Shown here one piece after another: positions 7,750 to 62,307 of a stretch of DNA of 64,000 nucleotides. Source of the DNA: a virus (taxonomy: Duplodnaviria; Heunggongvirae; Uroviricota; Caudoviricetes). The notes under the pieces are model-generated. The model was not told the DNA's origin. It saw nothing but the letters and a program-made list of their open reading frames with translations, and searched no databases. The stretch is taken from positions 34,789 through 98,788 of the IMG/VR virus record IMGVR_UViG_2974506819_000001; one strand, given 5' to 3'. The translations under genes and the position numbers were made by a program. The stretch's first letter is position 1, and every line of letters starts with the position of its first letter.

Positions 7750-8114
7750 CAACACAACGCTGGGGATCTCTGTTAGTACCGCTAGAAGGTTTAGTGGACT
7801 ATGGCTACTATGAAATCATCTGCCACGCAGTATCAGACAGAATCGTCAGTGTGTTAACCGGGGTGGACTTTGTGGACCACCTTGGGGTTTACGCCATGAA
7901 CTTCATCCAGGTGCCGGACCACTATGTGGAACACGGTAATGAAATGGAATTCTACGCTGAGGTAACGTCTGAACTCCGTACGCAGTTTAACTATAACGAA
8001 TCCCTGCCAGGCTACCTGAATGCCATGAACATTCTCTCGTTTTACCTGGGACACGATTTCCATGTAGCGGATATGAATGAACGTGGCATCACGGTATTGG
8101 TGGAGGCACCTTAA
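7746..8114 (+). CDS. Hypothetical protein
   Basis: 122-aa ORF translationally coupled to both neighbours. Confidence 0.75.
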   Translation: MTTQRWGSLLVPLEGLVDYGYYEIICHAVSDRIVSVLTGVDFVDHLGVYAMNFIQVPDHYVEHGNEMEFYAEVTSELRTQFNYNESLPGYLNAMNILSFYLGHDFHVADMNERGITVLVEAP

Positions 8115-8115
8115 C

Positions 8116-8622
8116 ATGAAAAGCGGAACCATAACCTTAACCGACACCATCTTTGGGATGGATGAAATCAAAGCAGACGTGCAGCAGGACTTACTGGTGT
8201 TGATTATTGTGGAGGCCATCCGCAATATCCTCTGGCAACGTAAAGACCAGATGATGGTGGGTTACCACGAGGCGTTAACGTTACGTCCGCTTGAACAACA
8301 GGACAACACCGTTACCGCTGACGATGTTTATGTAATGTCGTTGAATCACCTCATGGACGTGATTGAGTTAAACGACCCGTTGTTTGACACCGAAGATGCC
8401 GACAGTGTGGCAGAAGTCAGTGCAGCATTGAGTGATAAGCTGTCGATGCTCATGGGGTCGATTGACCGATTCAATCATCACGAAGTCTTGCTCCCCTATC
8501 AGGAACTGCTGTTTAACTTCTATGAAGAGAACGAGTTCCCGAGTGTCTCCGGTACCTTTGTGGGAAACAAAGTTGTGCTCTGTTTCACTACACCGACTAC
8601 GTTTGGTATGGCTACTATTTAA
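8116..8622 (+). CDS. Hypothetical protein
   Basis: ATG 8116 lies 1 nt after the upstream stop, with GGAGG RBS. 168 aa, acidic. Confidence 0.75.
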   Translation: MKSGTITLTDTIFGMDEIKADVQQDLLVLIIVEAIRNILWQRKDQMMVGYHEALTLRPLEQQDNTVTADDVYVMSLNHLMDVIELNDPLFDTEDADSVAEVSAALSDKLSMLMGSIDRFNHHEVLLPYQELLFNFYEENEFPSVSGTFVGNKVVLCFTTPTTFGMATI

Positions 8623-12201: not shown

Positions 12202-12216
12202 CGGAACTTATTGACC

Positions 12217-14031
12217 ATGGAACAACAACCTGGATTCGATCCTGATCTGAACAAAGATCTCCTGACTGAAGAAGTTGCTCATGCCCCGCGTCCCAATATC
12301 GGGCAAGCAGCTTCTGTACAACCAACTCAGTCTCAGCCGGTTATCCCGCAACCTCAGCCTGTGGTTCAAGAAGCCGCTGCCGCTGTTCCGGTTAAAGAGC
12401 CCGTTGCGCCAGCGCGTGCTGACCAAATTCACACGGCTGAAAACACGCCGTTCAAAAACTTCATCCCGCTGTCCAGCATCTTTATTAAGAAGCTGACCGA
12501 GAAAGAGAAGGAGCAGGGTTATCTGACCGTGTTCCTGGGTAACCACAAAGACGTTATCGAAGCGAAGAACGAGCTGATTCAGAAATGGCTGGTCTTCCGT
12601 GCGTCTATCGGTATGCTGGCTGACGGTGAAATCACCGAGCAGGAAGCGGAAAGCGCCCGTGCTAACTGGACAGAATATCTGCAGGCGAACCACCCAGGCG
12701 AAGACCAGGAAGAGATGGAGAAGTATTGTCTTGAGCTGTATCAGTTTATGGACACCATCCAGGACGGGATTAAAATCCGCAGTCGTCTGATGCAGGAAGA
12801 CCGCGTTACTAACCTCAGTGACCGTGGCAGTAACTTCATCACTGGCGACATCACCGGTAAACAGCCGAAGGCCGTACTGAAGAACACCGCGCTGTCTGAA
12901 CAGATGCGTCGTTCTGCGCTGAACGCCAATCAGGACCTGTATGAGTTTGATATCCTGCTGCGTAACTCGTTTGCCGGTCTGTCTATCCGTCGTCCTAACC
13001 TGCTTTCCCTGGGCAGCCTGGTGCAAGCCATCAGCAATCAGGTAAAAGGCTACGTGCGTCAAATCAACAACCCGTCGGTTACCCTGGCCTACATTGCCGG
13101 TATTCGTTGTATGTGGGACTACGTGTCTAAACTGATCCTTACCTGTTCAGTAAAAGACACCCGTGACTTCCGCGAGCTGGCTGACTCTATCCTGTTAACG
13201 GATGTGGACCAGCTGGCTGTGGGTCTGTTGAACTCCATCTACACCCGTGGCGTGCATCTCGAACTGCGCTGCATGAACCCGGGCTGTAACTGGTCTGATT
13301 TTGGCCTGGCTGATCCGTCAAAGCTGTTGGACATTCGTAAGAAGTTCGAAACGCCGGAAGAAGCTGCGGTATTCGCCAACATCATCAACCGTCGCCAGAA
13401 GTATTCTCGCGAAGACATGGAGAAGCTGCAGAAGGCAACCAACTACGGTATTGAAGACACTCGTGTGTTCGGTACTGATGGTCGCCATTACTTCCGTATC
13501 TCTCCGCCGACGTTGACTCAGGCATTCGAAACCCTGGAGTTCTTCACGGAAACCATCAACCCGCGTATTCAGGAACTGCGTGCCAACACGTTGGACCCGA
13601 AAGAGTTCGAAAACGAACTCACTGCGCTGTTGACCTCTATCTCCTCTGCGGAATACCTGCACTGGATTTCAGAGTACGTGGTACTGCCGGAGCCGGGTAG
13701 TGATGCTGAACCAACTGTGTACGCACGTCCTAAGCACGACACGGCTGAGTTTAACCGTGGCCTGATGGCTATCCTGGAGGATGACCCTGAGCTGGGTAAT
13801 GCCCTGGTGAAATTTGTGTACAACAAATCACCGTTCCTGTCTCGCGTCTTCACTGGGGTTGACCACCACGAGTGCCCGGCCTGTAAAGCACGTTCTGATG
13901 AACACGACGGTCGTCAGTTAGGCTTCACTCCGATCAACGCCTTCATGAGTTTTTTTACCCTTACCCAGTTGAAGCTCATGGTGAGAACGGTCCAGGCCGA
14001 CATAACAAACCGCGAAGCCCTCTCGGATTAA
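12217..14031 (+). CDS. Probable tail assembly chaperone / baseplate hub assembly protein (T4 gp26/gp51-like, Zn-binding), gpG-equivalent
   Basis: LTDVDQLAVGLLNSIYTRGVHLELRCMNPGC resembles the 'D.eylfl.iRa.S.ge.i.l...CpeC' motif. A second HECPAC follows, then ...NAFMSFF encoded over a T7 run. Start could be TTG 12211. Confidence 0.6.
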   Translation: MEQQPGFDPDLNKDLLTEEVAHAPRPNIGQAASVQPTQSQPVIPQPQPVVQEAAAAVPVKEPVAPARADQIHTAENTPFKNFIPLSSIFIKKLTEKEKEQGYLTVFLGNHKDVIEAKNELIQKWLVFRASIGMLADGEITEQEAESARANWTEYLQANHPGEDQEEMEKYCLELYQFMDTIQDGIKIRSRLMQEDRVTNLSDRGSNFITGDITGKQPKAVLKNTALSEQMRRSALNANQDLYEFDILLRNSFAGLSIRRPNLLSLGSLVQAISNQVKGYVRQINNPSVTLAYIAGIRCMWDYVSKLILTCSVKDTRDFRELADSILLTDVDQLAVGLLNSIYTRGVHLELRCMNPGCNWSDFGLADPSKLLDIRKKFETPEEAAVFANIINRRQKYSREDMEKLQKATNYGIEDTRVFGTDGRHYFRISPPTLTQAFETLEFFTETINPRIQELRANTLDPKEFENELTALLTSISSAEYLHWISEYVVLPEPGSDAEPTVYARPKHDTAEFNRGLMAILEDDPELGNALVKFVYNKSPFLSRVFTGVDHHECPACKARSDEHDGRQLGFTPINAFMSFFTLTQLKLMVRTVQADITNREALSD

Positions 14032-14480
14032 TCACCGAGCCTTACTTCTCGGCTGAGTACCTTCGGGTCTCTGGTAACCTGCTTGGGAAAGATATCTCGA
14101 ACATCTCTCCTGAGCAGCTCCAACGTTATGAAGAGATGCTGTACGACTTCAACATGGGGTATTACCGAACGGAGACCATGACTCCGTTTTCGTCGGTGGC
14201 GTACATCAAAGAGGAAAACGAATTCTATCATCCTTTATCGTTTGAGGAGACTGGCAAGCGCTATGGGTTTAACAAACTGCACGACGTTATTCCCATGGAG
14301 ACGTACCTGAAGCTTCCAGCCTTTATGATAGACGATTTCCTTAACGGCATCACGAAAGGCAAAGAGCAGCGGTTCAAGTTAGATAAGGACAAAGCACCGG
14401 CTGACGGTGACGCACCTAATGCTGAAATGCGGAACGTTGCTCTCCAACTCGAAAGTATCCTGAAGACTATGAACAAGTAA
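13950..14480 (+). CDS. -1-frame ORF, probably read as a frameshift extension of the chaperone (gpT-equivalent); its own ATG is at 14136
   Basis: The frame of the 14136-14480 ORF is stop-free back to 13902 and is exactly -1 relative to the upstream gene at T TTT TTT (13950-13956). YGFNKLHDVIPMETYLKLPAFMIDDFL resembles small chaperone C-terminal modules. Confidence 0.65.
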   Translation, partial: FFYPYPVEAHGENGPGRHNKPRSPLGLITEPYFSAEYLRVSGNLLGKDISNISPEQLQRYEEMLYDFNMGYYRTETMTPFSSVAYIKEENEFYHPLSFEETGKRYGFNKLHDVIPMETYLKLPAFMIDDFLNGITKGKEQRFKLDKDKAPADGDAPNAEMRNVALQLESILKTMNK

Positions 14481-14488
14481 TCTTCCCG

Positions 14489-14523
14489 TATCTCCTCCTC
14501 TGGCTGCGGCTGGGGGAGGGATA
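14489..14523 (+). terminator. Imperfect hairpin followed by TTTTATG
   Basis: TATCTCCTCCTCTGGC-tgcg-GCTGGGGGAGGGATA with G:U pairs and one bulge, then TTTTATG. Confidence 0.6.
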
Positions 14524-18479: not shown

Positions 18480-18890
18480 ATGTCTCATCTGAAACACATC
18501 TCTGAACTGAAGCAGGCACTGGATACCCTGGGTATCACCTGTCCGTTCAAACAGCAGGAACTGACCATGGAAGCGTACTTCCGTGCTATCCTGGTGTCGC
18601 ACTTCCGTTACAACACGTCGCTGTCTATGACAGAAGACCAAACCCAGCGTTGCTGGAAACAGCTGGACAAGTGGAACTGCGTCTCCCCGATCAAAGCCCA
18701 GCTTATCATGACCAAGGTCGCCACCTTCCTGAACAGCCTGCGTAACTCCCTGGGTAACCGCGGCGTGAGTCTGGAAGAAGAACCATCCCTGGAACTGCCG
18801 GACGGCACCAAACAGTGCCTGTGCAGTCTGGACACCTTCAACGACCTGGTTCAGTACCTGGCCAAAGAAATGAGGGAAGGCAATGAGTGA
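18480..18890 (+). CDS. Small putative head protein
   Basis: 136-aa ORF with RBS AAAGGA, inside the head-protein operon. Confidence 0.7.
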   Translation: MSHLKHISELKQALDTLGITCPFKQQELTMEAYFRAILVSHFRYNTSLSMTEDQTQRCWKQLDKWNCVSPIKAQLIMTKVATFLNSLRNSLGNRGVSLEEEPSLELPDGTKQCLCSLDTFNDLVQYLAKEMREGNE

Positions 18891-20421
18891 TACGCCGGTT
18901 TCTTCAATGACCCAAATCAACAAAGGGAACACCACCGCTTACCTTCCGGGTGACGATGATGATACCCAGCGTGTTGATCTGGATGAGTACTACGAAGAAT
19001 GCGAGCAGACTCACGTCACAAAGATGGTTACCGGTGCTGAAGCATTCTTCAGTAAAGGTGTGCTGTCGAAATCCCTGGCGCGTCTGAGCGGTCTTTCCGG
19101 GTGCGAAAATTACGACCCTATTCCGTCCCGTATGAATGCAAGACTGGGCGGGGAAGGGTTTGTTAGCGTTATCGTGGATGGCTTTAAGAAGTTCATTGAG
19201 AACATCATTAAGTACGTCAAGATGGCGGTGAACTGGATTGTGGATTTGGTGAAAACCCTGCTCGGTTATAAAAAGACCAAGCGTCAGGTTGAACAAGCCA
19301 CGGCGGAAATGGAAAACATCAAGAAGGAGTTCAAGGAACTGCTGAAAGGACTGGGCTTCCCGTCTGACAAGTGGGACCTGGACAAATTCATTGCGGACCC
19401 TGAAGTGTCGTTTGACCGCATGGGTGCTTTCCATATCCTGCGCAACAAGTTCATGGATGATGCAGAAGCCATCAAACGCCTGGGTGAATCTCTGCCTACG
19501 TTTGTAACGGCCGTTGAGTTCATGAACCAGTCCAGCAAAAACGTCAAGCGTGCCAGCGATAACTTCCACAAAGTGATTCACAATGTGGCGGGTGAAGTCC
19601 GTAAGGGTAAAACCGACGGGCGTGCTGAGCTCGAGTTGATTAAGCAGGCCGGTCATGAAATCAAGTTAGCCACTAACTTCGAAGGCATCACCACCAAGTT
19701 GAGCGAACTGTACAACGCCCTGTACACCAACACTGACGGCAAGGTTATCAAAGAGAACAAGTTCTCGAACGAAGCATTGCAGGAAGGGTACATGGAAATC
19801 CGTGCACAGCTGCAACAGCTGATTACTACGTCTTCTGTATCCATCCAGTCAGTGCCGGACCGCCAGACGTTGCTCAGCAGCATCGCCGATGCATCAGCCC
19901 GTTACGTTGCGCTGAAAGACACGGACATTGATCTGTCGCACATCGACTTCAAACAGTACGGTGACCTCATTAACAAACAGGACGCGGAAATCATTCGTGA
20001 GATTGATAAGCTGACCGGTGTTAATGGTGCGTTGATTTCTGCCTACAGCAATACGGCGAAGATGGTGCGCGACTATACCCAGTTCTGTCACAGCATCATC
20101 AATGTCCTGAACCAGACCAACAAGCAGTTGGAAAACCTCTGGCTCTGGCATAGCCGTGCGCAGCAGATGATCTTCTTCTACGTGCTGAAAGACTTCGAAG
20201 GCATTGTTGAGCTGAACAAGCAATACATCGCCATGGGTATGAATCCGTACGCTAACGGTGAAGGCATTCCTCGCGTGGATGGGTTCATTAAGTATGATGA
20301 CCGGGTAACGATGTTTGAAAAGATTGCGGGCACTGCCAACGATCTGCTTGAAGAGAACATCAACGGCATCAAAGACAGCATTCGTAACTTAAGCCGTTCT
20401 TTGGGGTGGACACCACGATGA
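18883..20421 (+). CDS. Putative processed internal head protein (phiKZ gp86/SPN3US gp47 position)
   Basis: Acidic propeptide with TGAE, SGCE and LGGE|GF sites, then the amphipathic helix GFVSVIVDGFKKFIENIIKYVKMAVNWIVDLVKTLLG. Confidence 0.7.
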   Translation: MSDTPVSSMTQINKGNTTAYLPGDDDDTQRVDLDEYYEECEQTHVTKMVTGAEAFFSKGVLSKSLARLSGLSGCENYDPIPSRMNARLGGEGFVSVIVDGFKKFIENIIKYVKMAVNWIVDLVKTLLGYKKTKRQVEQATAEMENIKKEFKELLKGLGFPSDKWDLDKFIADPEVSFDRMGAFHILRNKFMDDAEAIKRLGESLPTFVTAVEFMNQSSKNVKRASDNFHKVIHNVAGEVRKGKTDGRAELELIKQAGHEIKLATNFEGITTKLSELYNALYTNTDGKVIKENKFSNEALQEGYMEIRAQLQQLITTSSVSIQSVPDRQTLLSSIADASARYVALKDTDIDLSHIDFKQYGDLINKQDAEIIREIDKLTGVNGALISAYSNTAKMVRDYTQFCHSIINVLNQTNKQLENLWLWHSRAQQMIFFYVLKDFEGIVELNKQYIAMGMNPYANGEGIPRVDGFIKYDDRVTMFEKIAGTANDLLEENINGIKDSIRNLSRSLGWTPR

Positions 20422-34000: not shown

Positions 34001-35074
34001 ATGTCTGAGATTGTAGTTGAAACGATTGAAGAAATCGAAGCGGCTCACCCCATGGTAGATGTCTCCCCGGAGCTGGAAGCGGTATCCGATCACGCTGAAA
34101 CTGTTATTCAGGGTACACTGGATACCCTGGACGGCACCGAAGGTTACGGACTGACCGATGCTCAACGTTATCTGAACTCAGTGCTGTACGCAGCGGGTGA
34201 AGTTCCTGCTCACGTTGCCGGCAACGAAGGCGTATTGTCTACCATTAAAGGTTGGGCGACTAAAGCTATCGACGCGATTAAGCGTGCGTTTAAAGCGATC
34301 TGGGATTACCTGTTCGGTAAGAAGAACGCAGAAGAAGAAGTTAAACTGCTGCGTAATGAAGTGAAGGCCACCGTTGAAAAGGTTAACACCTTTAAGCAGA
34401 AAGCCAAGTCATCTTCTGAAGGTTCTTCCGGTAACGTCGTTATCGCGCTGGCCAACAACTACTCTCGCGCTGCGAGCGAAGTTAAAGCCACTGATCCGGC
34501 TTTGGCGAAGCAGTACGAAACCGCTGCCGAACAGCTGAAAGAAAACCCAGTCATCACCAGCATGTCTGACAAGCGTATTGTCCTGGACGAAAAGCTTTAT
34601 AAGAAAATTAAAGCTATCGCCGCAGCTGCTGATGCCCATGTTAAGAAATGCGAAGATGATTTCCTGGACATGCGTAGTCAACTTCAAGACGAAGCTAACC
34701 TGCAAGAAATCAGCGTTTCTTTGTTTGGCCAATCGATGCATAAACTGCTGAAAGCAGTGGACAGCGTTCATGGTGTTGATGACATCACCAAAGCGCTGTC
34801 AGCGCTGGACGCTGAAATCTCTGGCTGGGGTCTCAGCAACACGCTGACGTCCATGAAACGTATTCGTAGCAAAGTCGAAGCAAAAATCAAACGCTTCGAA
34901 AGCGAGATGAGTTCCCAGGATGCACAGGAGCAGAAAGCCATGCGTAACGACATCAATGATTTCCAGGTGATTGTTCGTATGTGCAAAACTGTGATCAGCC
35001 GTATGGAAGCGCAACTCAACGCCGCTAAACGCCTCGCGAAAATGCTGCCGAAGTTACATCGTCTGCCTGCGTAA
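34001..35074 (+). CDS. Processed head protein, paralog family 2
   Basis: DGTE|G...LTDAQRYLNSV...AGNE|GVLSTIKGWATKAIDAIKRAFKAIWDYLFG. ATG 34001 after AAGGA. Confidence 0.7.
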   Translation: MSEIVVETIEEIEAAHPMVDVSPELEAVSDHAETVIQGTLDTLDGTEGYGLTDAQRYLNSVLYAAGEVPAHVAGNEGVLSTIKGWATKAIDAIKRAFKAIWDYLFGKKNAEEEVKLLRNEVKATVEKVNTFKQKAKSSSEGSSGNVVIALANNYSRAASEVKATDPALAKQYETAAEQLKENPVITSMSDKRIVLDEKLYKKIKAIAAAADAHVKKCEDDFLDMRSQLQDEANLQEISVSLFGQSMHKLLKAVDSVHGVDDITKALSALDAEISGWGLSNTLTSMKRIRSKVEAKIKRFESEMSSQDAQEQKAMRNDINDFQVIVRMCKTVISRMEAQLNAAKRLAKMLPKLHRLPA

Positions 35075-53915: not shown

Positions 53916-53946
53916 AATCTGGTTAACTACTTATTTTTTTTTTCAC

Positions 53947-62292: not shown

Positions 62293-62307
62293 CAAAAAAA
62301 AGCATAA

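Follow-up and report, generated by a model that had tools for sequence, protein, structure and literature searches.

We describe here a gene from a tailed jumbo phage and the reading frame that follows it, in a stretch of 64,000 nucleotides (hereafter, the window) corresponding to positions 34,789 to 98,788 of IMG/VR record IMGVR_UViG_2974506819_000001. The gene, which defines the zero frame in what follows, occupies positions 12217-14031 of the plus strand, ends with the stop codon TAA at 14029-14031 and codes for a protein of 604 amino acids; the listing of open reading frames (ORFs) also gives an alternative TTG start at 12211. It belongs to the family of phiKZ gp77, PhiPA3 gp74, 201phi2-1 gp136 and EL gp47, and its product covers phrog_4585 end to end. 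Close to its 3' end, the codons ATG AGT TTT TTT ACC (13945-13959), in frame with the ORF 12217-14031, contain the heptamer T_TTT_TTT at 13950-13956 of the plus strand. Its register is X_XXY_YYZ, and the codons AGT TTT TTT specify S578-F579-F580. In the -1 frame, a stop at 13899-13901 is followed by an open stretch that runs from 13902 to the TAA at 14478-14480, whereas the third frame contains 17 stops between 13919 and 14423. The initial annotation of the window had taken this heptamer and the open -1 frame as signs of an unannotated programmed -1 frameshift, and both features are borne out by the sequence.

A slip of one base back after F580 would add 174 codons of the -1 frame (13956-14480, plus strand, TAA included) to residues 1-580 and yield a product of 754 amino acids and approximately 85 kDa. 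Its sequence would read ...MSFFYPYPVEAHGENG... across the junction, with QLGFTPINAFMSFFYPYPVEAHGENGPGR as the predicted tryptic junction peptide. Three successive parts can be distinguished in the extension, all on the plus strand. The first, at 13956-14031, is a dual-coding overlap, in which the zero-frame tail TLTQLKLM...EALSD and its stop are superimposed on the -1 frame peptide YPYP...RSPLGL. The second, at 14031-14135, is a conserved stretch without a canonical start codon in this phage. The third, at 14136-14480, is the downstream ORF of gene callers, whose 114 residues match phrog_19747 and make up the C-terminal two thirds of the extension. Equivalents of this ORF are EL gp48, PhiPA3 gp73 and phiKZ gp76.4. 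Just 3' of the extension stop, a hairpin scan revealed a terminator-like hairpin with a 12-bp stem and a T-rich tail (14493-14520, plus strand).

The slip site at 13950-13956 stands out from the other heptamers of the window, and the arrangement is not a matter of chance. Heptamers of the X_XXY_YYZ type occur in frame 35 times in the 56 non-overlapping ORFs of the window. The -1 frame stays open after them for a median of 7 codons, and more than 100 open -1 codons are found only with the heptamer at 13950 (174 codons) and with one situated in a gene overlap at 20400. The latter, T_TTG_GGG at 20400-20406, has 227 open -1 codons; ORF 18883-20421 ends 4 codons after it, and the GTG start (20406) of the next gene follows directly. 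The two genes overlap by 16 nucleotides, and this is probably an ordinary gene overlap and not a recoding site. Phe is encoded 19 times by TTC and 9 times by TTT in the 604-codon gene, and the slip site is nevertheless TTT TTT. Other homopolymer runs of at least 7 bases in the window are limited to T10 (53934-53943) and A8 (62294-62301).

To compare this locus with those of relatives, we gathered 22 named phages (20 together with phiKZ and PhiPA3; EL, OBP and PCH45 are also among them), four metagenomic relatives of 81-63% identity and 31 IMG/VR contigs obtained by a profile search with a 14-sequence alignment. The set also includes four assemblies of a near-identical strain (~96%). Removal of duplicates left 52 loci with distinct extension peptides, made up of the 22 named phages, the window, the near-identical strain, 4 other Logan/ENA contigs and IMG/VR contigs, and the protein identities of the relatives range from 81% to ~22%. 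Pseudomonas phage vB_PQ1 (PQ516283), whose gp77 homologue is broken into five small coding sequences and was matched in three pieces, was left out because it looks like an indel-rich assembly.

The slippery run and the open -1 overlap are conserved at all 52 loci, in the general form N_TTT_TTN. T_TTT_TTT is the most frequent version (31 loci), followed by T_TTT_TTC (18), with one occurrence each of T_TTT_TTA, of G_TTT_TTT, in PhiPA3, and of C_TTT_TTT, in an IMG/VR contig. The codon preceding the site ends in T in 50 of the 52 loci, irrespective of whether it specifies Ser, Asn, Ala, Gly or Thr, and in Kosakonia phage Kc263 the second Phe is replaced by Leu, yet a slippery TTA is retained. The site is always located 11-44 codons upstream of the zero-frame stop. 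The zero-frame tail that follows the run has 21-27 residues in most cases, 11-12 in phiKZ and PhiPA3 and 44 in PCH45 and SPLA10; it is itself conserved, and phrog_4585 spans to its end. The downstream gene is in the -1 frame at each locus, that frame opens 12-93 nucleotides before the slip point and remains open, and it extends for 160-185 codons past the site in the 51 loci that are complete. Thus, in the sequences compared, phiKZ-like (gp77-family) jumbo phages all retain the site, the frame relation and the extension, and this lends strong comparative support to the proposed fusion of the 604-codon gene with the downstream ORF.

Conservation at the nucleotide level points to the same place. 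Among 29 non-redundant genes, synonymous-codon identity calculated in windows of 9 codons has a mean of 0.54 (standard deviation 0.09) and reaches its gene-wide maximum, 0.86-0.92, at residues 579-584, i.e. at the slip site. A second peak at residues 597-600 falls within the two-frame overlap. The alignment of the extension peptides begins directly behind the slip: in the -1 frame, Pro2 and Pro4 are invariant, as opposed to differing zero-frame residues (T/D, L/H, Q/R). Ser21 is invariant as well, and Leu23 is present in at least 90% of the sequences.

The locus might alternatively consist of two ordinary genes, with a T run that simply mirrors a Phe-Phe dipeptide and a downstream protein produced by re-initiation at the stop/start overlap (ATC 14031 in this phage) or from ATG 14136. 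This is how it is annotated in all the GenBank records examined, and phrog_19747 models a stand-alone protein of ~120 residues. The five closest relatives have TAATG or TAGTG at the stop junction, where a gene of 148-154 codons is called, and ATC is an allowed, albeit weak, start in translation table 11. However, no start is conserved among the relatives. The first ATG, GTG or TTG of the -1 frame is found anywhere from 4 to 85 codons past the site, and the annotated gap between the two genes varies from -1 to 236 nucleotides, the longest ones, as in Aeromonas phage D6 and phiKZ, being made of open frame without a start. In phiKZ (NC_004629), the 218 nucleotides annotated as intergenic between gp77 and gp76.4 (71685-71902) are an open, start-less -1 frame, whose first ATG is 85 codons past the site. 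Moreover, two independent genes account neither for the -1 relation and open overlap at all 52 loci nor for the conservation of -1 frame residues upstream of any start, of a wobble T across codons for five amino acids, and of synonymous sites with a peak at the slip site. We therefore regard this explanation as very unlikely.

The situation in the window itself argues in the same direction. The initial annotation had noted that ATG 14136 has a weak ribosome-binding site. The ORF is indeed present, and no good Shine-Dalgarno (SD) sequence was found upstream of 14136 or of 14031, but the conserved frame extends upstream of this ATG by at least 35 codons. Over the codons at 14031-14135, which would otherwise pass for an intergenic spacer, 27 of 35 residues are identical to those of the relative with 81% identity, making this stretch conserved coding sequence. 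The stop junction reads TAATC in the window, as opposed to TAATG or TAGTG in the five closest relatives, and for this reason gene callers start at ATG 14136. Judging by these alignments, the downstream frame did not originally start at ATG 14136, and conserved coding begins at or before 14031. As a canonical start is missing for the conserved first part of the 'small gene', here and in the four assemblies of the near-identical strain, a frameshift would be the simplest route to its expression; initiation at ATC 14031 by coupling may be a weak alternative for this lineage. A 5-bp hairpin, CTCGG-ATTAATCA-CCGAG, at 14022-14039 takes in both the zero-frame TAA and the ATC now found in place of the ancestral start. 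It is a weak terminator-like match, apart from which no terminator comparable to that at 14493-14520 was detected between the two frames.

Homopolymers are error-prone and the two frames meet precisely at one, so that an artefact might be suspected: a sequencing error in the run, or a recent frameshift mutation, could have split a single gene of 754 codons. Nevertheless, the same out-of-frame layout is found in four independent Logan assemblies and at 51 other distinct loci. The four assemblies keep both the T7 run and TAATC, and their agreement indicates that sequencing errors explain neither of them. Also against decay, the zero-frame tail that follows the run is itself conserved and included in phrog_4585. 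Finally, no homologue with the two parts fused in frame was found among 13 near hits and 86 representatives at the 50% level. Selection therefore appears to keep the out-of-frame, two-product arrangement itself, and the probability of an artefact or of gene decay is negligible.

Based on these comparisons, we propose that a programmed -1 ribosomal frameshift makes proteins of 604 and 754 residues from the gene at 12217-14031, with a probability of roughly 0.85. According to this model, the majority of ribosomes would stay in the zero frame until TAA 14029-14031 and release the 604-residue protein. At U_UUU_UUU (13950-13956), with tRNA-Phe in both the P and A sites, a minority would slip one base back and re-pair on UUU UUU. 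They would then read the -1 frame from 13956, past the zero-frame stop, through 14031-14135 and the annotated small ORF, to TAA 14478-14480. The long product would consist of the common 580 residues followed by a mostly helical extension of 174 residues, and the ratio of the two forms would presumably be fixed. A tandem re-pairing of two tRNA-Phe fits the constant register, the T at position X and the Z bases that are tolerated (T, C and A).

Several observations nonetheless weigh against this model. The Phe-Phe dipeptide is also conserved at the protein level, so that part of the T run is explained by amino-acid conservation. In the five closest relatives, an ATG or GTG overlaps the zero-frame stop, and the downstream frame may therefore also be translated separately there. 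As for signals that might stimulate a slip, the 70-nucleotide downstream segments of 27 genomes fold no better than shuffled sequences (z-scores near 0), Rfam gave no match, and the 30 nucleotides upstream contain no consistent SD-like motif. Such elements are not obligatory, as lambda G/GT slips without one, and these negative results need not argue against a slip.

The same lack of a stimulator could be taken to favour transcriptional slippage. The phage or host RNA polymerase would add one U on the T6-T7 run, and the same fusion of 754 residues would then be obtained by normal translation. At least 6 consecutive T's are present at every locus, PhiPA3 (G_TTT_TTT) and the IMG/VR contig with C_TTT_TTT lack the canonical first base while keeping T6, and phiKZ-like phages are known for unusual multisubunit RNA polymerases. 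However, efficient polymerase slippage in bacteria usually takes a run of ~9 or more bases, and six or seven T's are few by that measure. The run always has the same register with respect to the codons, and the X base, at a wobble position, is T in 50 of the 52 loci, exactly as tandem tRNA re-pairing demands. A whole clade also retains T_TTT_TTC instead of extending the run to T7. Because the run has not been lengthened in that clade, a slip by the ribosome is far likelier than one by the polymerase, and we consider transcriptional slippage unlikely.

The proposed ribosomal frameshift resembles those of lambda gpG/gpGT and of P2 E/E+E'. In these systems too, a -1 slip on a heptamer located towards the 3' end of the upstream frame generates a major short form and a minor long form with a common N-terminus, as the sequence predicts here. 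The extension is a separate domain of approximately 150-180 residues, the layout is kept despite sequence divergence, and no strong RNA stimulator would be needed. The initial annotation had gone further and assigned the gene pair to the G/GT-type tail chaperones. The label holds only as an analogy, on comparative evidence for two products with a common N-terminus, and membership in that family is not supported. Searches of both frames against Pfam and NCBIfam returned no match, and no sequence or fold relation to gpG/gpGT was found. The common part amounts to 580 residues, as opposed to ~100-150 in lambda, and the heptamer is U_UUU_UUY here and G_GGA_AAG there. The genetic settings also differ, with tail tube and tape-measure genes in lambda, and a virion RNA polymerase subunit and a DNA polymerase in the phages of this study.

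Other well-characterized frameshifts offer looser parallels. In T7 gene 10 (10A/10B) and Escherichia coli dnaX (tau/gamma), a programmed -1 frameshift near the gene end yields two proteins that share their N-terminus, in a constant ratio. The T7 site (G_GUU_UUC) is U-rich like the one described here, but 10B adds only ~50 residues to the capsid protein. In dnaX, the slip shortens the protein and occurs at A_AAA_AAG with an SD-like element and a hairpin. Unlike in both of these systems, a conserved domain of 160-185 residues would be added in the gp77 family, and no stimulator was found.

Homologues of the 604-residue protein appear to be confined to a single type of phage. A megablast search with the locus against phage records revealed no near DNA relative. 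With tblastn, the protein matched 69 phage records and its PCH45 homologue 204, all of them from phiKZ-like jumbo phages, and a search with the C-terminal half brought nothing further. The annotated relatives keep the gene order, in which two genes of the opposite strand, for a virion RNA polymerase beta-like subunit and for a head protein, are followed by a small gene, the gp77-family gene and the small downstream gene. In closer relatives, a DNA polymerase gene is found near the locus. With small hypothetical proteins completing these neighbourhoods, the absence of an adjacent tape-measure gene, which had been remarked upon in the initial annotation, extends to the relatives. Genomic context had led us to consider PicA/Imp1 (phiKZ gp69) as a candidate identity, but it was ruled out because the PhiPA3 homologue is gp74, whereas PicA/Imp1 is PhiPA3 gp63. 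The proteins called 'gp77' in papers on Goslar and PCH45 are also different ones. Residues ~1-60 (12217-12450) are rich in Pro, Gln and Val and predicted to be disordered, with AlphaFold2 per-residue confidence (pLDDT) below 60. This N-terminus probably accounts for the 'ZipA-like' annotation of two homologues in Aeromonas phages.

What the protein does might be inferred from its cysteines and its predicted fold. The C-x4-C and CxxC motifs pointed out in the initial annotation are present and conserved in 62 homologues. The first pair, C352-x4-C357 (13270-13287, plus strand), is invariant. The second, C553-x2-C556 (13873-13884, plus strand), precedes the slip site by 23 residues; it has an invariant C553, and its C556 is found in at least 90% of the homologues. 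The four residues probably form a metal site. The AlphaFold2 model of the 604-residue protein has a pLDDT of 87.9 and a predicted template modelling score of 0.86. Compared with the BFVD database using Foldseek, its best named matches beyond its own family are models of T4-like baseplate hub assembly chaperones, assembly proteins and hub subunits (E 9e-4 to 1e-2, probability 0.99-1.0, TMt 0.45-0.55). In the ESM Atlas, it matched a 542-residue viral cluster, 14% of whose members carry PF12322 (T4_baseplate), with TM scores of 0.41/0.45 over 312 residues. Both gp26 and gp51 of T4 belong to PF12322. Both are named among the hub assembly chaperones in PMC3004832, according to which the finished particle lacks gp51.

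The resemblance to these T4 proteins has further facets. Two invariant Cys pairs, far apart in the sequence, are present in the gp26 family too (C82, C84, C187 and C190). In both families, the second pair forms a C-P-x-C motif near the C-terminus and is followed by F-F, and the CPxC stretches align. Gene 26 of T4 (7803-8429, minus strand) likewise yields two products, gp26 and the internal 26', although the second arises from an internal start and not from recoding. The start codon of gene 25 shares one base, the final A, with the stop of gene 26, in a TAATG junction like those of the closest relatives of the window. Gene 26 ends with ...GAG TTC TTT GAG TTA CTA TAA TG, in which Phe-Phe is also near the end, but TTC TTT is not slippery, and we know of no frameshift in this gene.

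Set against these likenesses, gp26 and gp51 have 208-249 residues, compared with 604 here, and profile methods provide no support for a relationship. None of 62 family members matched the PF12322 profile at E<=1, and hhalign of the family with a gp26 alignment gave a probability of 2.6%; with T4 gp51 as with gp26, it aligned only the CPxC stretch. Searches of solved structures, with Foldseek in the PDB and with VIA-align in a set of 48,161 chains, matched nothing beyond a generic helical hairpin at residues 109-180 (Z<=7). The model of the extension is all-helical (pLDDT 70), and a fold search with it retrieved only its own homologue in BFVD and no known fold. With these results, the functional assignment is weak. 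The mention of gp26/gp51-like proteins in the initial annotation fits better than the G/GT label, through a weak fold link to PF12322 and two distant Cys pairs in both families, but sequence profiles do not confirm it. We give about even odds to a distant relationship of the 604-residue protein with the hub assembly chaperones gp26/gp51, or at least to a functional analogy, and a hub-chaperone function is plausible but unproven. If so, both forms might serve as an assembly factor for the tail baseplate hub. The Zn-binding body would then perform the common job, and the extension would provide a second contact in the minority of molecules that carry it, as in lambda G/GT.

A programmed -1 frameshift that gives rise to two isoforms of an assembly factor is a known device. 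Its novelty here lies in the family of genes concerned, in how large the common part is, in the genomic surroundings and in the occurrence of the arrangement throughout a phage group. None of the GenBank records examined annotates a frameshift at this locus, and we found no description of it in the literature. A broader proposal is that all phiKZ-like jumbo phages have a tail-assembly frameshift of their own, carried by a large Zn-binding scaffold distantly related to T4 gp26/gp51 and not by a G/GT-type chaperone. The ratio of short to long forms would be dictated by U_UUU_UUY, and together they would nucleate the baseplate hub or the tail tube. We put this forward tentatively, as a possibility that is rather doubtful at present. 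If it is true, the rule of a conserved frameshift in tail assembly genes would extend to a myovirus lineage in which none is known, and the enigmatic gp26/gp51 class would gain a mechanistic model.

Nucleus-forming jumbo phages and the other phiKZ-like ones, which are intensively studied and considered for therapy, have a core gene in the gp77 family. If the frameshift takes place as proposed, the locus would be mis-annotated in all of the ~200 public genomes that have the gene. A protein of ~750 residues would be missing from them, and the 'small gene' would be the tail of a longer frame. It would also represent a second, independent instance of a fixed-ratio frameshift in a phage assembly factor. 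The results of knock-down, transposon sequencing (Tn-seq) and proteomic studies reported for two 'genes' would then have to be re-read as those of one locus with two products.

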